DNA from: Pseudomonas phage vB_PseudoP-SA22 | DNA: 45,458 bases | Sequence record: OP793496.1 | Reading direction: 5' to 3' (one strand) | Shown: positions 32,563 to 41,615 of the stretch, one piece after another | Numbering within the stretch: position 1 is the first letter of the stretch | Layout: each line of letters opens with the position of its first letter | Program-made: the position numbers and the translations under genes | The notes under the pieces: generated by a model | Databases searched by the model: none | Told to the model about the DNA's origin: nothing | Seen by the model: only the letters and a program-made list of their open reading frames with translations

Positions 32563-32940
32563 TTACCCCTCCAGTTGACTCTTGAGAACCAGGCTTGGTA
32601 CAGCATTCACGTTGCCCGGTAGGGTTTTATAGGGAGTTGTTACGAAGGTACCGTAGACCTCCTCCAGTTCCCGAAGACGATCCTCGATTTTCTTCAGTCG
32701 CTCCCACATGAAGCGAATTCCAATGGATTCGTCACAGTACCCACCGTAGCTGGTCTCGGGACTATCCGAGGCCTCCGGAATCTTGGAGACCTCGATAGAG
32801 TCTTGGAGGTGTCGCTGGGAAGCTACAAGGCCCAGGATCTCCTTGAGAAGCATCTTCTGGGCATGTAGCTCTTGGTGTCCGAAGGTATTCGGAGTATCGC
32901 GGTAGACTTCTACTGCTTTGTCTACGGTCATTTCGTTCAT
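32563..32940 (-). CDS. Hypothetical protein (125 aa)
   Basis: ORF track; ATG overlaps the GGCT-like gene stop. Confidence 0.4.
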   Translation of the reverse strand: MNEMTVDKAVEVYRDTPNTFGHQELHAQKMLLKEILGLVASQRHLQDSIEVSKIPEASDSPETSYGGYCDESIGIRFMWERLKKIEDRLRELEEVYGTFVTTPYKTLPGNVNAVPSLVLKSQLEG

Positions 32941-33338
32941 TATACTGCTCCTTGTCGTTTTGCCAGGTGTGCCTTCCAGTCGCCATCCTTGACGATATCC
33001 ATCGCCATGTGGCTATCCTGATGGTACACCAGGGCCTTGATGCGTTCCCCATTGATTCGGAAATCCTTGAGGGTACGATCATACCAACCCGGATAACCCT
33101 CTAGGGCATCCAGGTTCTCCAGCATTTCATCCCCCGCTTCGCCCTCGGGGAGTTGCCAGATTTCACCTACGATGAGGTCAGCACGGGAGGCGAAGGAGAG
33201 GATGGGGAAGCCGCCAGCGGAGTACATCAGACCCCGCTCGCAGGATACAGCATTGCCGATGAACTCGGCCCCTTCCAGAAGGTAGTGGTTGTACAAACCT
33301 GACAGGAGAGTACCATAAACGAAAACACGAACAGCCAT
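32940..33338 (-). CDS. Gamma-glutamyl cyclotransferase-like (AIG2/GGCT fold) protein
   Basis: N-terminal VFVYGTLLSGLYNHYLL (YGTL motif) and conserved acidic region EGEAGDEMLENLDALEGYP; 132 aa, typical size. Confidence 0.6.
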   Translation of the reverse strand: MAVRVFVYGTLLSGLYNHYLLEGAEFIGNAVSCERGLMYSAGGFPILSFASRADLIVGEIWQLPEGEAGDEMLENLDALEGYPGWYDRTLKDFRINGERIKALVYHQDSHMAMDIVKDGDWKAHLAKRQGAV

Positions 33339-34219
33339 TAGATAGTCTCCTCGAAGATTTTGCTGAAGCCCTTGACGTATGCCTCCAGGGCGCTGCCTTC
33401 AGCGTCCAGACCTGGGGCGGTGTTGATCTCCAGGACAAAAGCCCGGCCAGTGGCGTGCTGGAAGATAATGTCTACTGCACCGAAGTCCAGTCCGGCCACC
33501 TGGATAGCCTCGGCAGCCGCAGACAGTGCCTGCTCTGCACCTTCACGGTCAGCCGCATCATTCACCCCATAGACCCAACCGCCGGCTACGTTACGGACGA
33601 TGCTGTTGCCGTTATCTTCCTCGCCATCGGCGCGACGACGGAGCTTGACTTGCAGGAGGACTGCTTCCCCACGGATGACGTGGACTCGGAACTCGGTACG
33701 CTTACCAACGATGCCCTGGGTAAACAGTTGTGCCCTGGTGATAACCTCCGGGATGTGGGTGTGACCGTAGATGTGTACCGGGTAGTGACCCTGACGGCGA
33801 AGGTTGTCGATTGCAGTAACCTCGGCGTCGTTGATCGAACATACCAGATGGATACCACGACCGCTATGGCCGTTCAGATCAGTACGTGCATACATACGGC
33901 CAGTGATGTTGAGGACACCCAGGGCGTCTTCCCATCGCTCTGTCCAACGGGGAATCAGGTGAGGGGCATTGGCCTCGAAGTGGCGGAAGAACTCCAGCTT
34001 GTTAGAGCAGCGGTGAACAACTGCCGGGTCGTTGAGGAACACAGGGGCAATATCCCGGAGTCGGTGAGCCTCTGCACCAACGGTACCCCAGTTGATTACC
34101 GCAGTACCCGCACGACCCCGATAGGTAGACCCCTCGGAGCGAAGGATTCGAGCACCCAGGGCGTTACGAAGAGCGACAGCACCAGCAGAGGGGCGGGAAC
34201 CTTTATAGATATAGAACAT
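33338..34219 (-). CDS. ATP-grasp carboxylate-amine ligase (RimK/glutathione-synthetase-like)
   Basis: C-terminal catalytic signature DIIFQHATGRAFVLEINTAPGL (E-x-N...PG), VRNVAGGWVYGVND; 293 aa. Confidence 0.7.
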   Translation of the reverse strand: MFYIYKGSRPSAGAVALRNALGARILRSEGSTYRGRAGTAVINWGTVGAEAHRLRDIAPVFLNDPAVVHRCSNKLEFFRHFEANAPHLIPRWTERWEDALGVLNITGRMYARTDLNGHSGRGIHLVCSINDAEVTAIDNLRRQGHYPVHIYGHTHIPEVITRAQLFTQGIVGKRTEFRVHVIRGEAVLLQVKLRRRADGEEDNGNSIVRNVAGGWVYGVNDAADREGAEQALSAAAEAIQVAGLDFGAVDIIFQHATGRAFVLEINTAPGLDAEGSALEAYVKGFSKIFEETI

Positions 34220-34253
34220 GGCAAATCTCCTGTTTCTGTTGAGGGTAGTGAAG

Positions 34254-34339
34254 CCAGCAATAGCCCCTGGAATCCTAAGTTAGATCCCATGTACGCATCT
34301 TAGGAACCGGCATGGGTCGGCCAGGGGCTATTACTAACG
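34254..34339. repeat. Conserved long stem-loop element, copy A (CCAGCAATAGCCCCTGG ... CCAGGGGCTATTACTAACG) with nested inner inverted repeats
   Basis: 12-bp perfect outer stem; shares both arms with element at 40594..40637; sits directly upstream of SD of the ATP-grasp gene on the - strand. Confidence 0.7.
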
Positions 34340-34346
34340 CACTACC

Positions 34347-34568
34347 TTACTCGAAGTAGTCTTCGAAGAGTCGGTCGATAGCTTCCGCAATGACTACCGG
34401 GGCCGGTACCAGGAATTCCTCGTCCGGGTTGGCATCATTGAGTTCCTGCTCCTTGACTCGACGAATCGACTGGATCTTGTCCAGGGTGTCACGGGAGAAG
34501 GGATACTTACGGGTTGCGTCGGTCTCCATCTGGATCACTACTTGACGCTTCATCGTTACTTGGGTCAT
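34347..34568 (-). CDS. Hypothetical 73-aa protein, last gene of the amidoligase operon
   Basis: ORF track; 10-nt gap to GATase gene. Confidence 0.4.
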   Translation of the reverse strand: MTQVTMKRQVVIQMETDATRKYPFSRDTLDKIQSIRRVKEQELNDANPDEEFLVPAPVVIAEAIDRLFEDYFE

Positions 34569-34577
34569 TTTGACCTC

Positions 34578-36110
34578 CTATTTATTTTCGATTACACACT
34601 CACCACAGATGAACTCGCACTCATCCAGGCTACCAGTGAACTTGGCACCTTCGTATACCGTCAGATGACGATTACGCTGGTCATATGCGGTTGGGATCTT
34701 CCCGCAAGATGCACATCCCTGGGACACGAAGTCCCGAAAGACATGCACGTTGTTGAAGGTGTGGCCTTGCACCTTCAGGGGGTAGGTGATGTTGGCCGGA
34801 GGGGTGTTCCCCGAGGTGCCGCCGACTTGAACCCTGGGTTTAGAATGGGATTTCGTCTCCGATGAGATCGTTCCAATCCTCAACACTGGGGTAGTCTCCC
34901 CAGGAGTCGGCCGATGCTTTGGGTCCAGGCAGCTTACCGCCAGATCCTCGACAGTAACCTTGAGATCACGGTCTTGGCCGATGAAGTAGGCATTGGATAT
35001 ACTCCCTCGGAGGACGGTGTATCCGTGGACTTTGGCGACGTTGATGCCATGAGCTTCGATGAGAAGGTTTTCTTCACGCTCGATTCCAGTGACAGTTCCG
35101 TATTCGCTTCCGTTTGCGTAGGCCTCGATCTTGACAACATCGAAGGTGACGAGTTGCCGGTGCTTGAAGGTGCTACCTGCTGCGTCGAGGTTGTTGTTGA
35201 TCCGGAGGGTGTTCCTTGCGTACGCATCGCCAGTCGTTCCATACGACGAGCCCGCTTGGCTGCCTTTCGTTCCCGCTTGGCTGCCTTGGCTTCGGCTGTA
35301 GTCATCGTAGTCCGAGACACCGATGTAGCGACTCCACCATGCCGCTGTTTGCCTTTCGCTTTCGGGAATCGGGAGGTCCAGAAACGTGACCGGAGTGGTC
35401 TGGGGTTCTGCACCCTTTCGCACTCCGGCCTCCGTGAACGGGATAGTTACCAGGACTTCGGCCTTCAGTTCAGCGATGGGAGAACGCAGGCGGATCTTAG
35501 CATTGGGTCGCTCCAGGAAAACCTTGAGCATCCCAGGCTCCGATGCCCATACGATGGTCCCGGTGGTGGTAACCGCCATGAACAGAGGACGATCCTCGTT
35601 ACGGATGAAGTTCAGGCTACGTTCCTTGGAATCCCACCAGACAACCGCAGCAGCACCAGAGAACTTCTCCTCGAACGTCTTCTTGGCACCGTGGTTGGCA
35701 ATGGTAGCGCATAGCATGTTGGAATCCACGTTGTACTTATCATTGCCGTCCAGCAGGTGCAGGCCCCAGGTATCTACGGTTCCGTTATGTACCATGGTGA
35801 TGTGGTCTACCTGGAAGGGGTGGGCATTACCATGGTCCGTCTTGTCGCCCATCGTGGCGTAACGGTTGTGACCCATGTAGATGCGAGCCCGACCCTTGTC
35901 CAGGAACTCCTTGGTTTCAGGATCAGCCAGGAAGTCGTAGGCATCTACTGCCCGCTTGTGAATTCCTACCTCGTTCTTAACCGGGTCGATCTTGGCCAAA
36001 CCGGTGGCGTGAGCACCACGGATAATATCCACGGCCAGGAGGGATTTGAGAAGAGCGATTTCGTTATCACTCGCGTTAGTTGTGGCACAGAAGCCTACCA
36101 ATCCACACAT
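34578..36110 (-). CDS. Class-II (Ntn) glutamine amidotransferase fused to an unknown beta-rich domain with C-terminal C4 zinc ribbon
   Basis: MCGLVGF...GAHATGLA...GHNRYATMG with Cys2 nucleophile, as in PurF/GlmS/AsnB N-terminal domains; low-complexity linker SQGSQAGTKGSQAGSS; C-terminal CASCG...CGEC. Confidence 0.75.
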   Translation of the reverse strand: MCGLVGFCATTNASDNEIALLKSLLAVDIIRGAHATGLAKIDPVKNEVGIHKRAVDAYDFLADPETKEFLDKGRARIYMGHNRYATMGDKTDHGNAHPFQVDHITMVHNGTVDTWGLHLLDGNDKYNVDSNMLCATIANHGAKKTFEEKFSGAAAVVWWDSKERSLNFIRNEDRPLFMAVTTTGTIVWASEPGMLKVFLERPNAKIRLRSPIAELKAEVLVTIPFTEAGVRKGAEPQTTPVTFLDLPIPESERQTAAWWSRYIGVSDYDDYSRSQGSQAGTKGSQAGSSYGTTGDAYARNTLRINNNLDAAGSTFKHRQLVTFDVVKIEAYANGSEYGTVTGIEREENLLIEAHGINVAKVHGYTVLRGSISNAYFIGQDRDLKVTVEDLAVSCLDPKHRPTPGETTPVLRIGTISSETKSHSKPRVQVGGTSGNTPPANITYPLKVQGHTFNNVHVFRDFVSQGCASCGKIPTAYDQRNRHLTVYEGAKFTGSLDECEFICGECVIENK

Positions 36111-36121
36111 TGTATTTCTCC

Positions 36122-37297
36122 TTAGTACATATCTGGTTCGATTGTTACGCCGGTATGGCGCTGAAGGTGCTGCGGGTTATCCATGAGCAGTACGAAGGCA
36201 TCTTGAAGAGCCTCTTGGTCCTCCAGAAGGTCTCGTACACGCACTTGGTGACCAATACGACGCAGAGAAGTTACCGCAGTAATCGCCGTATCCAGTCGAA
36301 CCTGGGTACCTGGGACCATTGCCAAGTTGTACCGCTCTGCTGCACCATCGAGTAGTCTGGAGGTAGTAGATCGAGCCAGCAGCAGCCTACGATCCAAAAC
36401 CCTCTGACGCTCACGTTCCTGCTCCCGGAGACGACGCTGACGGTTCTGTTCATCCTCCAGAGGGTCTACCCCGGAGCGAACAAATCCCATGGTTGCTACC
36501 GCGAGAGTAGCACTGGCGATCCCCATCTCACGACCACCTGGAGACATTTCATAGTCCGGAGATACCCCCAGGAAGAACACATCACGGAGATTCACCTCGG
36601 AGAGAACCTTGAGGAACTCTTCCAGCGGGGTTTCTGCGTGAGCCATAGCGAAGGCCTTGAGACACAACATACGCTGCATCAGGCCTACCATCTCCTGCCG
36701 AGTAGTGAGAGCATGGGCCCCACGGAACTCGATGGATCCGAAGTTGTGGGTTACCTGGAGGTTCAAGGCCGAATACTTTGGCCAGGAGGTAAGACCCAAG
36801 ACTTTCTCTCGGTCACCTTCCGGGGCCAGGATACGGCGACCAAAGGTCTGGGCCAGCCAGTCGTTGCTGAAGAACGGGATGCAGAAGTTACTATCCCGAC
36901 GATACGGCTGACAGTGATCGAAGAAAACATCCTCGAATGCCATGTAGGTCAGGACCGTTCGCTCATAAACCGGCCACTCTACGTCCCGCATATCCATGTG
37001 CAGGTGGGTGGAGCAACGGAAGGTGGGGGCCGGAGGGGTTTCTTCCATCGCACTAACGAAGGATTCAACCCGAGTGATTGCCTTCTGGCCAGAGGCGGGA
37101 CCGGAGAAGACATACTCCATACCCTCCCGCAGAGAACCGTCACCCTTCAGATCCCACCCATCCACTTCCGGCCAGTTGTTGAGGCCTTCCAGTTCGACTT
37201 CGAAACCGAAGGAAGCAACCGCAGGCAGTTCCTCGTGGTGTTCCGGGGCAATGATCTGGTTCTTACGGAACCCTATCTGTGTGCCAATAACTGACAT
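36122..37297 (-). CDS. Glutamine-synthetase-like amidoligase (GCS2/YbdK-type carboxylate-amine ligase), paralogue 1
   Basis: N-terminal FGFEVELEG (E-x-E), CSTHLHMDMRD (H-x-H), GSIEFRGAHA (E-x-R): the three signature strands of the GS/GCS2 fold. Confidence 0.6.
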   Translation of the reverse strand: MSVIGTQIGFRKNQIIAPEHHEELPAVASFGFEVELEGLNNWPEVDGWDLKGDGSLREGMEYVFSGPASGQKAITRVESFVSAMEETPPAPTFRCSTHLHMDMRDVEWPVYERTVLTYMAFEDVFFDHCQPYRRDSNFCIPFFSNDWLAQTFGRRILAPEGDREKVLGLTSWPKYSALNLQVTHNFGSIEFRGAHALTTRQEMVGLMQRMLCLKAFAMAHAETPLEEFLKVLSEVNLRDVFFLGVSPDYEMSPGGREMGIASATLAVATMGFVRSGVDPLEDEQNRQRRLREQERERQRVLDRRLLLARSTTSRLLDGAAERYNLAMVPGTQVRLDTAITAVTSLRRIGHQVRVRDLLEDQEALQDAFVLLMDNPQHLQRHTGVTIEPDMY

Positions 37298-37842
37298 AGC
37301 AAGTCCTCCTGGTTCTTGAATTGTTCATCTGCGGACAGTCGGCCATCTACCATCTGACCAACCTTCACCCCCTTCCAGTGAACTACCCCATCCTTGATGA
37401 AGAAGTCCCGGTGGGAGGGAGCAGAGATCATTTCCTCGGCCTGGGTGAAGATTCGGATCATCATTTCGCCGGTGATAGCCTGTTGGCCATGGTTCAGCAA
37501 GATGTTCCGTGGATCTACACCCTTACGCTGGGTCCGGTTGTTCACGAGGAATGATACATAGGTATCACGAACCCCACGGCCAAAGACGTCATAGTACCCA
37601 CTGGAGGGCCGCACGCTTTCTACCTCGCTGTAGACAACCCCACCGTAGTAGTTACTGCCGTCGGGTCGGTACACGTTGCCAAGGAGACGAAACCCATCGA
37701 ATTGACGGTCGTCACCAATGGACTCGGTATCGTCCACGTACACTACCCGAGGCTCGCCGTCCACCCGGAAGAAGGCATAGGTGGAGGAGTAGTACATGTT
37801 GAAGTCTCCGGACAACCGATGGCGATTATTCAGGTCATTCAT
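37273..37842 (-). CDS. Hypothetical protein (189 aa) within amidoligase operon
   Basis: Overlapping start/stop with both neighbours. Confidence 0.45.
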   Translation of the reverse strand: MNDLNNRHRLSGDFNMYYSSTYAFFRVDGEPRVVYVDDTESIGDDRQFDGFRLLGNVYRPDGSNYYGGVVYSEVESVRPSSGYYDVFGRGVRDTYVSFLVNNRTQRKGVDPRNILLNHGQQAITGEMMIRIFTQAEEMISAPSHRDFFIKDGVVHWKGVKVGQMVDGRLSADEQFKNQEDLLCQLLAHR

Positions 37843-38635
37843 ATACCACCCCCAGCGCTTTAAGTGCAGCTACCGCCGCGGCGCCGTCGTTCTCGTTGAT
37901 GATTCGCTGGACTTCATCGCCAGATACGATGGACTTGTACTCCTCCAGGAGGTGCTTGGAGGTGTAAGCCCGTACTGCCATTTCATAGACCCACTCGGTC
38001 AGATCGACAGAGAAGATCCAGAAGTTCGACAGGCTACGGTACTCGCCGCCGTAGGGCTTATAGCGCATTGCGCCAGCCTTGCCGTACAGCTTCTTACGCT
38101 GGGTGTCACCGTCGAGGATGACAGACGCCAGGCCCAGGAGGTAGTCACACATCTGCATGACCTCGCGGGTGTTCGCTTTGGTGACTCGCTCGATGTGGCT
38201 GAAGCCGATATGGACGTGGCCGCCAGCAGTTCGCAGGGTCGGAGGGGCATCCTTCGGCATCACGTTCTGACGACGAGTCCAGCAGTTGTAGTCCGGCTCG
38301 CAACCGAAGACGTAAGCCTGGGGACCGAAGCTGCGGAGGAGTTCCTCGTCGTACAGGTGAGACGACAGGTTCTCGATGATGTTCATGCCGAAGGGGTGGA
38401 GCATCTGGGCACCAAGGAGTCGGACGGAAATGATCCGCTTGACGAACTCTTCCTTGGTGCTGGCCGGGTCGATGTTGTACTCCAGAAGAACGTTGTCTTC
38501 TTGGACGGCACCACCGGCTACAGCCAAGGGCGCTTCCTTGGTTCCACCGATGAAGCCGATGACGCTCTGGGGGTTACGGTCGTAGCCGACGAAAACTTCG
38601 GGATCTGCACCGATCAGGGGGATTGCGTTGTTCAT
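37835..38635 (-). CDS. Glutamine-synthetase-like amidoligase, paralogue 2 (shorter)
   Basis: LIGADPEVFVG (E), TAGGHVHIGF (H-x-H), YGGEYRSLS (E-x-R). Confidence 0.55.
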   Translation of the reverse strand: MNNAIPLIGADPEVFVGYDRNPQSVIGFIGGTKEAPLAVAGGAVQEDNVLLEYNIDPASTKEEFVKRIISVRLLGAQMLHPFGMNIIENLSSHLYDEELLRSFGPQAYVFGCEPDYNCWTRRQNVMPKDAPPTLRTAGGHVHIGFSHIERVTKANTREVMQMCDYLLGLASVILDGDTQRKKLYGKAGAMRYKPYGGEYRSLSNFWIFSVDLTEWVYEMAVRAYTSKHLLEEYKSIVSGDEVQRIINENDGAAAVAALKALGVVYE

Positions 38636-39588
38636 TGCATGTTCTCCAGTTTTTCGAGGATTTCGGGGATGCTGTATTGGCTGGTGGGTACGACCTCGGA
38701 CCTTTCCCGACCTGGGTCACCTACGTCAATGGTGATTGGGGCCATGATGGAAAGGATTCGGTCATTAGGTACACCTTCAAGACCGTCGCATTCGATCAGG
38801 TAATCATCCTTGGTATACCCCTGCCACAACTCAGCGTCGTGATGCTTGAGCTTGTCCTTGAACTCTTCGCGAGTCCGCTCATGGATGCTCTTAATATCGA
38901 AGTAGGTGATATTCTTGTACCCACCTACGATACCATCCATGACCTCGCTTATGTAGCTGTCATCCACCTCCCAGCCGTGGCTCTCGCAGCCCTCCCGGTA
39001 TTCACCAGCAGTCACCGGGAACATGGCCGGATAGCTGTCGCAATGAGCAGTGCTACCTACCTGGGCACAAGCCGCGAGGGTGAGAATCTCTGCATTGCAG
39101 CCCAGGATTTTATCACGATTTTCCTGGGTGATGCGACGCATGGAATCACCTACACACCACAAGCGATCTCCCATTCGGAGAGCACAGATGATGGCCGATG
39201 CGTTCTTCCTGAGGTCCACCCGTACATACACTGCCTGCCGGCGTCCTGGGGGTGAGAAGTGGTTGGGATCACTGAGATTCTGGAGATCATCGTCGTAATT
39301 CCACCAACGGGTAGGCCAGTCGATAGAAGCCGAGAGGATACCGCCATCGGTAATCCTGTTGACCAGATCACTGTTCAGGAACTCCACCAGTTTACCAGAG
39401 GTATTCTCGTGGGTAGATACCAGCAGGTGGCCAACCCCGGTAACCCACCGGTCGCCCCCAACGTCGGAGGTCCGGTCGCAATAGGCCCCGAAGCAGTTTG
39501 TATATTCGGCCATCATTTTGACCGAGTAGTGGTGTACCACAGAGCCCTCGGCATCATAGTACACATTATGGGCTGCATACATTCCCAT
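38632..39588 (-). CDS. Hypothetical protein (318 aa), Cys/His-rich, within amidoligase operon
   Basis: ATGA overlap with paralogue 2; AGGAG SD. Confidence 0.45.
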   Translation of the reverse strand: MGMYAAHNVYYDAEGSVVHHYSVKMMAEYTNCFGAYCDRTSDVGGDRWVTGVGHLLVSTHENTSGKLVEFLNSDLVNRITDGGILSASIDWPTRWWNYDDDLQNLSDPNHFSPPGRRQAVYVRVDLRKNASAIICALRMGDRLWCVGDSMRRITQENRDKILGCNAEILTLAACAQVGSTAHCDSYPAMFPVTAGEYREGCESHGWEVDDSYISEVMDGIVGGYKNITYFDIKSIHERTREEFKDKLKHHDAELWQGYTKDDYLIECDGLEGVPNDRILSIMAPITIDVGDPGRERSEVVPTSQYSIPEILEKLENMQ

Positions 39589-39606
39589 TTGATTTCTCCT
39601 TGGTTG

Positions 39607-40569
39607 TCAGAAGTTTTTCTCGATGAAGTCTTCGAGGGCCGCATAGACAGCCTGTTCGCCGCTTCGCCAGCCAATCTCACCCATGATCCCCAGCATGACT
39701 ACTCCGTATTTTTCACAGGTATGAAGATAAAGGCGGATGAAACCTCCCACCTCGCTATCTACGGTCATGTAGGGGTCTTTCTTTCCGAAGACGGTTGGCT
39801 GAGGGGCTATGGTAACCACCTCCACCTTGTCCAACTGAATCTTCAGGAATTCAGACCGCCAGGGTGTACTCCTTACCCACTCACGTCCACCTGGGGCATC
39901 CCGATTGGCCATCCAACGACCGAATCGCATAGACTCTTCAGCGGATTGGATGTGGATATCCCCCTTCTTGAGATCATCCCAATCGCTACTGAACATGTAG
40001 TTGGAGAGGGGATACCCGGTGTAGCCATTGGCTATCAGCCCGTGGAAGGACATTGCGAGGTAGGACTTCCAGAAGCCATGCTTCTCAGCAAGCTTCAGAT
40101 GAACCTCCTCTTCACGACCTAGGTAATCGAGTCCGCTGGAGATCATCTTGAAGAGGAATTTCATGATGGGGTACCAGGAATCCAGGGTGTGTACCTTGGG
40201 GTTGAAGTAGATACCGCAGACCCCTTCCTTTCCGTGTTGGGTGGGGGAAATCATTTCCGGCCCGCAGACGTACTTCACGAAGGGGGAATCTTTGGCCTTG
40301 CTTTCGTAAGACCAGAAGTGGACCTTCGGGATCTTGAAGGCCTTGCCGCCGATGGTGATGGTCTTGAGTTCACCTTGGGTACACTTGTTGAGTGCATCGA
40401 CGAACTTCTTGCTTCGACGGGAGCAGATGAAGGTCCAACCGTCGAGCTTATAGCCGTGGGTTACCGGACCTTCCATGGTACCGAAGCAGGAGGAAGAGGT
40501 CATCACCTTGAGTGCCTTAACCCCAGACTCCTTGGACTTCATACCGAAGGCATACTTGATACGGGCCAT
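39607..40569 (-). CDS. Hypothetical enzyme-sized protein (320 aa), first gene of amidoligase operon
   Basis: AGGAG SD directly after stem-loop element B. Confidence 0.45.
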   Translation of the reverse strand: MARIKYAFGMKSKESGVKALKVMTSSSCFGTMEGPVTHGYKLDGWTFICSRRSKKFVDALNKCTQGELKTITIGGKAFKIPKVHFWSYESKAKDSPFVKYVCGPEMISPTQHGKEGVCGIYFNPKVHTLDSWYPIMKFLFKMISSGLDYLGREEEVHLKLAEKHGFWKSYLAMSFHGLIANGYTGYPLSNYMFSSDWDDLKKGDIHIQSAEESMRFGRWMANRDAPGGREWVRSTPWRSEFLKIQLDKVEVVTIAPQPTVFGKKDPYMTVDSEVGGFIRLYLHTCEKYGVVMLGIMGEIGWRSGEQAVYAALEDFIEKNF

Positions 40570-40790: not shown

Positions 40791-41615
40791 TTAGCGAACG
40801 TTGATGAAGGGCATGGCTTGGCCGCCGGTGACGTAGGTAGGCAGCTTGCCGTCCCACTTCTCGATGGCATTCAGTTCTACCACGCCGGGGTTCTGGCGGA
40901 GGGCTTCACCCTGGATGCGGAGGCTTTCGGCCTTACCTTGTGCCACCAGGATAGCCGCTTGCTTCTCACCCTCGGCTGCCGCGATAGCCTTAGCTGCCTC
41001 GGCCTGGGTCTGACGCAGTTCGTTCTCGCGCTGCATCGCCGTCTGAGTGGCCTTGATCTTGGCATTGATCGCCTCGACCACCTGCGCCGGCAGACCGATC
41101 ATACCGTTGAGGTACAGGCTTTCGACGATGATGCCACGGGTGGAGAAGTGCTCACGGACGGCAGCTTCGACTTCCTTCACGAAGGCTTCCTTGCCCGGAC
41201 CATAGATGGACTCGGCGGACTTTTTGCTGCTGGCGTTGTTCACGGCGTTACGGACCACCTGCGGCACGTTCACGCTTACGATCTCGTTCATGCCCTTGCG
41301 GTAGGTCTGGAACAGCAGGGGTGCGCTACCCGGAGCAGCCCGGAGGGTGACGCCGATGGGGAAGTCCAGCTTCAGGCCGTCCTTGTCCTGGGCAGTAACC
41401 ACCGCCAGATCGAAGTTCTGGTTGAAGGTGGGGAACTTGAACAACTCCTCGTTGGGGGTCAGGAACTTCCAGCCGACCGGAGTTTCCTTCAGATCGACGC
41501 CTTTGGAGTCGCCCATCATGTTGACGACGACGCCGGTATAGCCAGCGGGAACCTTGGAGCAACCTGCGGTGATTGCGAGAGCAGCAATGGCCAGGAGGCC
41601 GAGGATTTTCTTCAT
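40791..41615 (-). CDS. SPFH (band-7/stomatin/HflKC-like) domain lipoprotein
   Basis: Lipoprotein signal MKKILGLLAIAALAITAGC; SPFH-like core then Ala/Glu/Gln-rich coiled coil AMQRENELRQTQAEAAKAIAAAEGEKQAAILVAQGKAESLRIQGEALRQ. Confidence 0.65.
   Translation of the reverse strand: MKKILGLLAIAALAITAGCSKVPAGYTGVVVNMMGDSKGVDLKETPVGWKFLTPNEELFKFPTFNQNFDLAVVTAQDKDGLKLDFPIGVTLRAAPGSAPLLFQTYRKGMNEIVSVNVPQVVRNAVNNASSKKSAESIYGPGKEAFVKEVEAAVREHFSTRGIIVESLYLNGMIGLPAQVVEAINAKIKATQTAMQRENELRQTQAEAAKAIAAAEGEKQAAILVAQGKAESLRIQGEALRQNPGVVELNAIEKWDGKLPTYVTGGQAMPFINVR

Follow-up and report, generated by a model that had tools for sequence, protein, structure and literature searches.

Pseudomonas phage vB_PseudoP-SA22 (OP793496.1), whose whole 45,458-nucleotide (nt) sequence we call the window, carries on its minus strand a compact array of genes that includes three ATP-dependent carboxylate-amine ligases and a glutamine amidotransferase (GAT). 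Seven of these genes fill positions 34347 to 40569 and, by alignment to the RefSeq record of phage LUZ24, correspond one-for-one to LUZ24 gp14-gp20, while the genes downstream correspond to gp21-gp24; we use the LUZ24 names throughout. More than 60 sequenced LUZ24-like Pseudomonas aeruginosa podophages (Bruynoghevirus) match this 6.2-kb interval at 96-98% nucleotide identity, among them SaPL, oldone, LUZ24 (whose cassette is 96% identical to that of the window), DL54 and PaP4. The array is the LUZ24-lineage copy of a known phage amidoligase cassette, a real system that has already been described.

An earlier note on this DNA had presented the interval as a six-gene operon. All genes of the interval are indeed co-directional and tightly packed (list of open reading frames, or ORFs, and junction script), but the count is seven, as a gene of 73 amino acids (aa), gp20, had been omitted. 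The overlaps given in that note are all present, namely a 4-nt ATGA overlap between gp15 and gp16, an 8-nt overlap between gp16 and gp17 and a 25-nt overlap between gp17 and gp18, but the gaps, put at 10-11 nt, are 11 nt (gp18 to gp19) and 9 nt (gp19 to gp20), and one, between gp14 and gp15, is 18 nt. A GGAG-type ribosome-binding site precedes every start codon of the array. Moreover, position 34347 is not the end of the functional unit, which extends on the minus strand from 40569 to at least 32940: after gp20 come a 127-nt spacer, genes for an ATP-grasp ligase (gp21), a gamma-glutamyl (amine) cyclotransferase (GGCT; gp22) and a conserved 125-aa protein (gp23), with 1-nt overlaps at both the gp21-gp22 and gp22-gp23 junctions, and then a primase/helicase gene. 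The cassette genes are thus packed for coupled translation, upstream of the primase/helicase gene and within the early/replication region, and they occupy 15-17% of the 45-kb genome. Scans for consensus promoters and terminators between 32000 and 42500 gave signals at or below chance, and no 19-residue window in the cassette proteins reached membrane-helix hydrophobicity.

Two of the genes in the interval encode ligases with glutamine synthetase (GS)-like motifs. The gp16 protein (LIG2; 266 aa; 37835..38635, minus strand) is a phiEco32-type COOH-NH2 ligase, that is, a carboxylate-amine ligase, which matches PF14395 ("phiEco32-like ligase type 2"; E 1e-7, 32 bits against a cut-off of 25) and phrog_3815 (E 1e-118). 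The gp18 protein (AMID; 391 aa; 36122..37297, minus strand) is an Amidoligase_2 carboxylate-amine ligase with a helical C-terminal extension, which matches PF12224 (E 4e-5, 24 bits against a cut-off of 22) and phrog_7631. When 11-12 phage lineages were aligned, D11, E13, D47, E52, H140, H142, E198 and R200 were invariant in gp16, as were E33, E35, D53, E61, H98, H100, E190 and R192 in gp18. Thus, the signature triads that had been noted from the letters of the window are real and invariant, although that of gp16 begins with D-x-E rather than E-x-E (D11-x-E13, H140-x-H142 and E198-x-R200, compared to E33-x-E35, H98-x-H100 and E190-x-R192 in gp18). The assignment of both ligases to the GCS2/YbdK type did not survive, as they match PF14395 and PF12224 instead and neither matched GCS2 (PF04107) in Pfam at E values up to 0.1. 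Their description as close paralogues is not supported either: the hhalign probability for the pair is 1.7%, with the HxH stretch alone aligned. The two proteins share a motif layout, and the superfamily idea behind the rejected family name may hold. No NCBIfam model matched either ligase, profile searches of the PDB found no solved relative of either family, and longer orthologues of GAT, Amidoligase_2, ATP-grasp and LIG2 displayed no informative domain fusions in Pfam.

The third enzyme of the interval, gp19 (GAT; 510 aa; 34578-36110, minus strand), is a class-II glutamine amidotransferase of the N-terminal nucleophile (Ntn) type. It begins MCGLVGF, with Cys2 directly after the initiator Met, as had been proposed, and the profile search called for in the earlier note yielded a GATase_6 match (E 2e-26) that covers residues 1-208 only and includes the catalytic Cys. 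Specifically, Cys2, Arg83 and Asn109-Gly110 align on Cys1, Arg73 and Asn98-Gly99 of the glutaminase domain of Escherichia coli GlmS; R31, R83, N109, G110 and D129 are invariant, and Cys2 is kept in 11 of 12 lineages. By its position, rather than by alignment, D129 would be the counterpart of GlmS Asp123. In a structure model built from 18 sequences, with a mean predicted local distance difference test score (pLDDT) of 79, residues 1-248 (35367..36110, minus strand) adopt with high confidence the class-II (Ntn) fold with the full catalytic and glutamine-binding set, and Foldseek comparison of the model to the PDB returned GATase-domain matches only.

The remainder of gp19 had been described as an unrecognized beta-rich domain ending in a C4 zinc ribbon. 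The four cysteines (C466, C469, C502 and C505) are invariant in the 18 sequences, but the model resolves the region into recognizable parts on flexible tethers: a disordered linker rich in Ser, Gly and Gln (residues 249-295), a helix and a five-stranded OB-like barrel of order b1-b2-b3-helix-b4-b5 (residues 320-392; 34935..35153, minus strand), a second disordered linker (residues 405-438), and a compact, zinc-ribbon-like C-terminal module with a pLDDT of 84-91 (residues 445-507; 34590..34778, minus strand). An exhaustive search of 1.84 billion proteins found 21 relatives of this tail, most of which share the zinc module only, and a shallow word-indexed search found one cluster. Most of the distant matches cover residues 212-280 alone of the 281-residue tail query (approximately 441-509 of gp19), and the zinc module is conserved more widely than any other part of the tail. 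No synthase (acceptor) domain was found in the C-terminal 260 residues, which consist of the linkers, the OB-like barrel and the zinc module instead; it is possible that a neighboring ligase acts in trans as the acceptor of ammonia from gp19.

Just outside the interval lie two more enzymes that co-occur with these in other phages, and thus the interval as first delimited was not the complete system it had been taken for. The gp21 protein (293 aa; 33338..34219, minus strand) is an ATP-grasp ligase resembling RimK and MptN, the third ligase of the cassette. It matches phrog_2599 (E 3e-102), annotated as a RimK-type "S6 glutaminyl transferase", and, below the curated cut-offs, the NCBIfam models for MptN (E 3.5e-5) and the RimK family (E 2e-3). 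Orthologues of gp21 match the Pfam RimK domain at E 1e-8; D250, E264 and N266, the Asp/Glu/Asn triad that binds Mg and ATP, are invariant; and gp21 and its orthologues also give weak matches to the R2K clade that fall below Pfam thresholds. The gp22 protein (132 aa; 32940..33338, minus strand) is a GGCT of the AIG2/GGACT family (PF06094, E 3e-20) with a YGTL motif at residues 8-11. The claim that ATP-dependent amide-bond chemistry is embedded in the replication module stands, with an intact Ntn GAT and two carboxylate-amine ligases in the interval itself.

To place the cassette among its relatives, we used gp16 as a marker; it detected 318 phage records by tblastn and more than 534 contigs in IMG/VR. 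Gene content was counted in 92 LIG2 loci (L002-L093), some of them truncated. The core order is COOH-NH2 ligase, gp17-like protein, Amidoligase_2, Ntn GAT, sometimes DUF7195, ATP-grasp and sometimes GGCT; in annotated neighborhoods, one or two proteins of approximately 300 aa precede this core and a primase/helicase usually lies beside it. Amidoligase_2 was found in all 92 loci, GAT in 91, ATP-grasp in 86 and the gp17-like protein in 79, in near-invariant order, and a primase/helicase was nearby in 56. The same order is seen in phiEco32-like ECBP2, Proteus phage 3H10_20, Aeromonas LAh_6, Pseudomonas TC6, Vibrio Phriendly, Pseudoalteromonas HP1, Pseudomonas syringae Lyrsu02, PaP3, tf, UFV-P2 and BroderSalsa, and the crAss-like Cellulophaga phage phi14:2 has a reduced form; synteny thus spans phiEco32-like, Privateervirus, Zobellviridae, crAss-like, Aeromonas, Vibrio and Pseudoalteromonas phages. 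The order GAT, ATP-grasp, GGCT of the window is that of ECBP2, PaP3 and tf, and the cassette of phiEco32, RIO-1, 7-11, PA11 and the LUZ24-PaP3-tf group is one and the same entity, its five enzyme families being shared and identically ordered. The Amidoligase_2 and GAT genes of UFV-P2 are separated by an inserted HNH homing endonuclease gene (L012 8700-9104), and in Pseudomonas phage TL (L015) the GAT gene is apparently split into two ORFs; therefore, the cassette tolerates insertions between genes.

In contrast to this spread among phages, only 40 LIG2 loci (L094-L133) were found in 185,579 bacterial and archaeal species genomes (one genome each). Nearly all of these lie on phage-sized contigs of 45-100 kb binned into metagenome-assembled genomes, with labels that include Saccharibacteria, Bacilli and Clostridia, and they are probably mis-binned phage genomes. 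The ligase family is thus essentially phage-restricted, and since LIG2 is nearly absent from cellular genomes, these are not the usual host-derived metabolic genes. The near-identical order across diverse phages, together with the near-absence from cells, argues that the cassette confers a strong phage-specific benefit.

The distribution of two other genes bears on what the cassette does. Clustering of neighbors in the 92 loci revealed a recurrent protein of approximately 212 aa that matches Peptidase_C26 (E 1e-17; for example, L004 5293-5913 and L008 5044-5730), the gamma-glutamyl hydrolase family that includes PuuD. GGCT was found in 51 of the 92 loci and Peptidase_C26 in 34, while the two were never found together; one or the other was thus present in 85 loci, and several of the seven loci with neither are truncated. 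This pattern looks like non-homologous replacement at one step of a pathway. Since GGCT and C26 are unrelated enzymes that both free an amine from its gamma-glutamyl amide and that swap for each other, the pathway should pass through a gamma-glutamyl intermediate that has to be removed, and we consider the pattern good evidence, at the level of gene content, for an obligatory gamma-glutamyl-removal step. GAT is present in 91 of the 92 loci alongside either enzyme, which suggests that it has a different job.

Besides these enzymes, the cassette encodes several other proteins. The earlier note had listed gp14, gp15 and gp17 as three enzyme-sized proteins of no recognizable fold, a description of the fold that holds for gp14 and gp15 but not for gp17. 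Core protein gp17 (189 aa; 37273..37842, minus strand) is modeled as small SH3/Sm/Tudor-like beta-barrels with helices and is probably an adaptor rather than an enzyme; its short Cas1 matches (E 0.002-0.03) were dismissed as chance. Searches of Pfam, NCBIfam, PADLOC and PDB sequences gave no match of any weight for gp14, gp15 or gp17.

The gp14 (320 aa; 39607..40569, minus strand; phrog_9504, unknown function) and gp15 (318 aa, acidic; 38632..39588, minus strand; phrog_7973) proteins are accessories restricted to one lineage. Matches to gp14 by tblastn are confined to Bruynoghevirus-like Pseudomonas phages, and a shallow word-indexed search of 5.8 billion proteins found five clusters of gp15 homologues. 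Identity to the PaP3, tf and UFV-P2 counterparts is 32, 20 and 18% for gp14 and 40, 25 and 23% for gp15, compared to 63, 57 and 55% for gp16. By these comparisons both proteins are fast-evolving, diverging at about twice the rate of the enzymes, and appear as accessories rather than core components. Comparison by hhalign gave no support (<5%) for homology of gp14 and gp15 to each other or to proteins at the same position in other phages, of which they may be either extremely diverged versions or replacements. In contrast, the proteins of approximately 310 aa whose genes directly precede the ligase gene in phiEco32-like, Privateervirus/LAh6 and marine/Zobellviridae phages are remote homologues of one another (hhalign 78-79%; L002 7040-7990, L003 7037-7969, L007 7040-8008, L004 4368-5300 and 27 IMG/VR loci). 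This c36/c10-type family is another near-core family, which the LUZ24 lineage seems either to lack or to have in a form diverged beyond recognition. Thus, compared to the cassettes of other phages, the LUZ24 lineage has gp14 and gp15 in place of the c36/c10-type protein, and a structured spacer before the ATP-grasp gene.

This spacer (127 nt; 34220..34346, minus strand) separates the ATP-grasp gene from gp20 and folds into a long hairpin with a minimum free energy of -53.7 kcal/mol (z -5.3). At 90%, its identity to the PaP3 spacer exceeds that of the flanking genes (67-76%). Hairpins occur at the same position in tf, UFV-P2 and BroderSalsa, with compensatory changes in 9 of 23 pairs across five genera. 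The hairpin may act in transcript processing or attenuation, or as a terminator, and so divide the cassette into two units. The small DUF7195 protein gp20 (73 aa; 34347..34568, minus strand; PF23825, E 5e-19) is encoded just after GAT in several phage families (25 of the 92 loci), and its sequence pattern possibly resembles a ribbon-helix-helix. We considered DUF7195 as a Pup-like tag and rejected this, as the C-terminal residue varies among homologues (E/S/P/I/H). At the downstream end, the gene for gp23 (125 aa; 32563..32940, minus strand; phrog_8197), which is translationally coupled to the GGCT gene, is found in LUZ24-like phages only (12 of the 92 loci).

From their sequences, then, the cassette encodes three intact ATP-dependent carboxylate-amine ligases from three families, an intact Ntn GAT and a GGCT, along with non-catalytic modules in the gp17 beta-barrel protein, in the OB-like barrel and zinc module of GAT, and in DUF7195. 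We think it reasonably probable that the cassette as a whole builds an amide derived from glutamate or glutamine on an amine or peptide of low molecular weight. Working in the cytoplasm in the early to middle stages of infection, the ligases would form amide bonds one after another at the expense of ATP, yielding a glutamate- or glutamine-derived, peptide-like amide on an amine acceptor. One of these ligations would form a gamma-glutamyl amide, to be removed later by GGCT here and by the C26 gamma-glutamyl hydrolase in other phages, a transient use of the gamma-glutamyl group that would resemble the Puu/Pau polyamine pathway or the synthesis of butirosin. GAT would most likely release ammonia from glutamine and hand it to an acyl-phosphate that one of the GS-like ligases has formed, and it might dock on its partner via the zinc module. 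The acceptor could be a polyamine, a derivative of an amino acid or a precursor of the cell wall, with an amine or peptide of low molecular weight likelier than DNA, and gp14 and gp15 may set host-specific targeting. We rank the low-molecular-weight amine or peptide first among acceptors, and treat a cell-wall precursor, a protein and a nucleic acid as its rivals.

Parallels to parts of this scheme exist in several known systems. In the butirosin side-chain pathway, BtrJ is an ATP-grasp gamma-glutamyl ligase and BtrG a GGCT-family gamma-glutamyl cyclotransferase; like the cassette, this pathway pairs an ATP-grasp ligase with an AIG2/GGCT-family enzyme, such that a gamma-glutamyl group is added and then removed, and the GGCT in the tf record is itself labeled "BtrG-like". 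Unlike the butirosin pathway, the cassette lacks an acyl carrier protein, a pyridoxal-phosphate-dependent decarboxylase and an acyltransferase, and adds two GS-like ligases and an Ntn GAT. PuuA/PuuD of E. coli and PauA/PauD of P. aeruginosa couple synthesis of a gamma-glutamyl amine by a GS-superfamily ligase to its removal by a Peptidase_C26 enzyme, of the family that many variants of the cassette carry in place of GGCT. The Puu/Pau ligases, however, are of the Gln-synt_C family while those of the phages are PF14395 and PF12224, the cassette lacks the oxidase and dehydrogenase steps, and the window has GGCT rather than C26. Also named as related are the ergothioneine enzymes EgtA and EgtC, a gamma-glutamylcysteine ligase and an Ntn GAT-II amidohydrolase. 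The PafA/Dop pair of the pupylation system, like the cassette, has two GS-superfamily enzymes side by side with a small protein encoded nearby; in contrast, the cassette has neither a Pup-like protein with a conserved C-terminal Gln/Glu nor proteasome genes, and its ligases belong to other families.

Several considerations weigh against this scheme. The GS-like fold of gp16 and gp18 is drawn from Pfam family membership, the motif pattern and the work of Iyer and colleagues in 2009, who reportedly assigned such a fold to these ligase families. The exclusivity of GGCT and C26 may reflect a few ancient replacements that follow clades, since lineages rather than independent events were counted, and GGCT was detected in only 51 of the 92 loci, some of which are truncated. 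OB-like, zinc-ribbon and Sm/SH3-like modules are typical of polymer binders and fit a macromolecular target better, although binding modules that are acidic to neutral could simply assemble an enzyme complex. Finally, no substrate, product or phenotype is on record for the cassette; full-text literature searches, in which Iyer et al. 2009 (Mol Biosyst) and Hardies et al. 2013 (J Virol) were represented by the papers that cite them, found no experiment on its function, and the genome papers of UFV-P2 and tf annotate the genes only. To this extent, the mention in the earlier note of a comparative-genomics prediction with no demonstrated product agrees with the literature.

Enzymes of these kinds do act on cell-wall precursors, as seen with ATP-grasp ligases (Ddl, D-Asp ligase) and with GAT-II enzymes (AsnB-type stem-peptide amidation). 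If the cassette modified peptidoglycan precursors, the ligases and GAT would remodel the stem peptide by adding or amidating residues, GGCT and GAT would recycle gamma-glutamyl material, and the altered envelope would exclude superinfecting phages. All of the cassette proteins are cytoplasmic, where wall precursors are made, and this is the published reading of this very cassette: a study of Pseudoalteromonas phages described a seven-gene "peptidoglycan modification cassette", hypothesized to prevent superinfection, listed as carriers phiEco32, 7-11, PA11, tf, MR299-2, LUZ24, PaP3 and CW02, and cited Iyer et al. and Hardies et al. 2013 (PMC5498523). Others have likewise suggested a role in the cell wall and superinfection, or in secondary metabolites (PMC10580990; PMC11706807). 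Nevertheless, we consider a wall target unlikely, if worth keeping in view. None of the 92 loci links the cassette to a Mur ligase, a transpeptidase, a flippase or a protein targeted to the envelope, which weakens the idea, the cassette sits among replication genes, and there is no supporting experiment. Poseidoniales archaea, moreover, lack murein. Yet a GATase/amidoligase pair is reported in viruses assigned, by prediction only, to these archaea (PMC11706807). We regard as highly improbable a general role, in which the cassette would serve as generic auxiliary metabolism of the nitrogen or glutathione type and boost the flux of host glutamine, glutamate or the gamma-glutamyl cycle for phage replication. 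All of the enzymes handle Glu or Gln, and a role in nitrogen metabolism was proposed for a Planctomycetes phage with amidoligase, GATase, "glutathione synthase" and GGCT genes (PMC10945688), but the near-absence of LIG2 from cellular genomes indicates that these are not borrowed host genes, the ligases are not orthologues of GshA, GshB or GlnA, and a fixed order of many genes, kept together with non-catalytic partners of their own, speaks for a specific product rather than general flux.

The binding modules raise the alternative, which we hold to be doubtful, that the cassette is a phage-specific modifier of macromolecules, such that the OB barrel, zinc ribbon, gp17 and DUF7195 hold RNA, DNA or protein while the ligases build a glutamate adduct that GGCT or C26 trims, with gp14 and gp15 as host-specific targeting subunits. 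If true, this would be a new class of nucleic-acid or protein tagging in phage replication. With a protein as target, glutamate or a short peptide would be added to a host or phage protein in the manner of RimK, TTL or PafA, held by gp17 and the OB/zinc tail of GAT, and GGCT or C26 would trim or reverse the modification. The SH3/Tudor-like barrels of gp17 and the tethered modules of GAT would suit a macromolecular substrate, and the fast evolution of gp14 and gp15 fits an arms race over host targets. The substrates of GGCT-family enzymes, however, are gamma-glutamyl amines whose alpha-amino group is free, typically small molecules. The ATP-grasp enzyme is RimK-like and has weak matches to the R2K clade, which is predicted to modify proteins in phages (PMC4431377), but these matches fall short of Pfam thresholds, no target is known, and there is no ubiquitin- or Pup-like tag, given that the DUF7195 C-terminus is not conserved; overall we find modification of proteins rather unlikely. 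Modification of nucleic acid, by which an amino-acid-derived group would be attached to, or amidated on, phage DNA or tRNA by enzymes that the binding modules recruit, seems to us very unlikely. The OB-like (S1/SSB-type) barrel and zinc ribbon of GAT, the Sm-like barrels of gp17 and the possibly ribbon-helix-helix-like DUF7195 are of types found in nucleic-acid binders, the cassette constantly adjoins primase/helicase, and the phage has genes for tRNA-Asn, -Asp, -Tyr and -Pro, but the binding proteins range from acidic to neutral and are not basic. Furthermore, the enzymes that start base modification, namely a hydroxymethylase (dUMP/dCMP hydroxymethylase), DNA kinase (5-hmdU DNA kinase), pyrophosphorylase (aGPT-Pplase) and transglycosylase (DpdA/TGT), are all missing from the LUZ24 annotation, with no whole-window profile scan made, and from the recurrent neighbors in the 92 loci. 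Native nanopore sequencing of the Vicosavirus Rembedalsseter worked normally and flagged a nick-associated motif only (PMC11780129), in a comparison for which the cassette is established in the genus-mate UFV-P2 rather than in Rembedalsseter itself. Taken with the missing starter enzymes, this result makes bulk DNA modification unlikely, and thus DNA, one of the targets that the earlier note had left in play, is disfavored. Among these alternatives, we continue to prefer an amide on a low-molecular-weight amine or peptide.

We also note several features in the neighborhood of the cassette. Just upstream of it in the window lies a 274-aa ORF (40791-41615, minus strand) with a lipoprotein-like signal at its N terminus (MKKILGLLAIAALAITAGC); the counterpart of this ORF in UFV-P2 carries a Band_7/SPFH annotation, and LUZ24 has different genes at this place (gp12 and gp13). 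At 2461-2789 on the plus strand, the window has four clustered genes for tRNAs, namely Asn(GTT), Asp(GTC), Tyr(GTA) and Pro(TGG), and three of these tRNAs belong to the queuosine-carrying set of bacteria; tRNAs alone were found when the window was searched with Rfam. In LAh_6, genes for a ribose-phosphate pyrophosphokinase and a nicotinate phosphoribosyltransferase, of the type used in NAD salvage, directly follow the cassette (L007 15027-16768), and an RNA ligase 2 gene lies upstream of it; the NAD-salvage neighbors may be a coincidental clustering of middle genes.

The earlier note had overstated the novelty of this locus, as LUZ24 and PaP3 are named in the published account (PMC5498523) and the RefSeq record of LUZ24 already labels gp16, gp18, gp19, gp21 and gp22 by these enzyme families. 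For this window itself there is nothing new: it is one more LUZ24-like carrier of an annotated and discussed cassette. What is new here is the mutual exclusivity of GGCT and C26, the architecture of the GAT tail, the fold class of gp17, the restriction of gp14 and gp15 to one lineage and the restriction of the ligase to phages. Identification of the product of the cassette would define new activities for two uncharacterized ligase families, and the solved cassette could reveal a new phage strategy in the form of a metabolite, a changed envelope or a tag on macromolecules.

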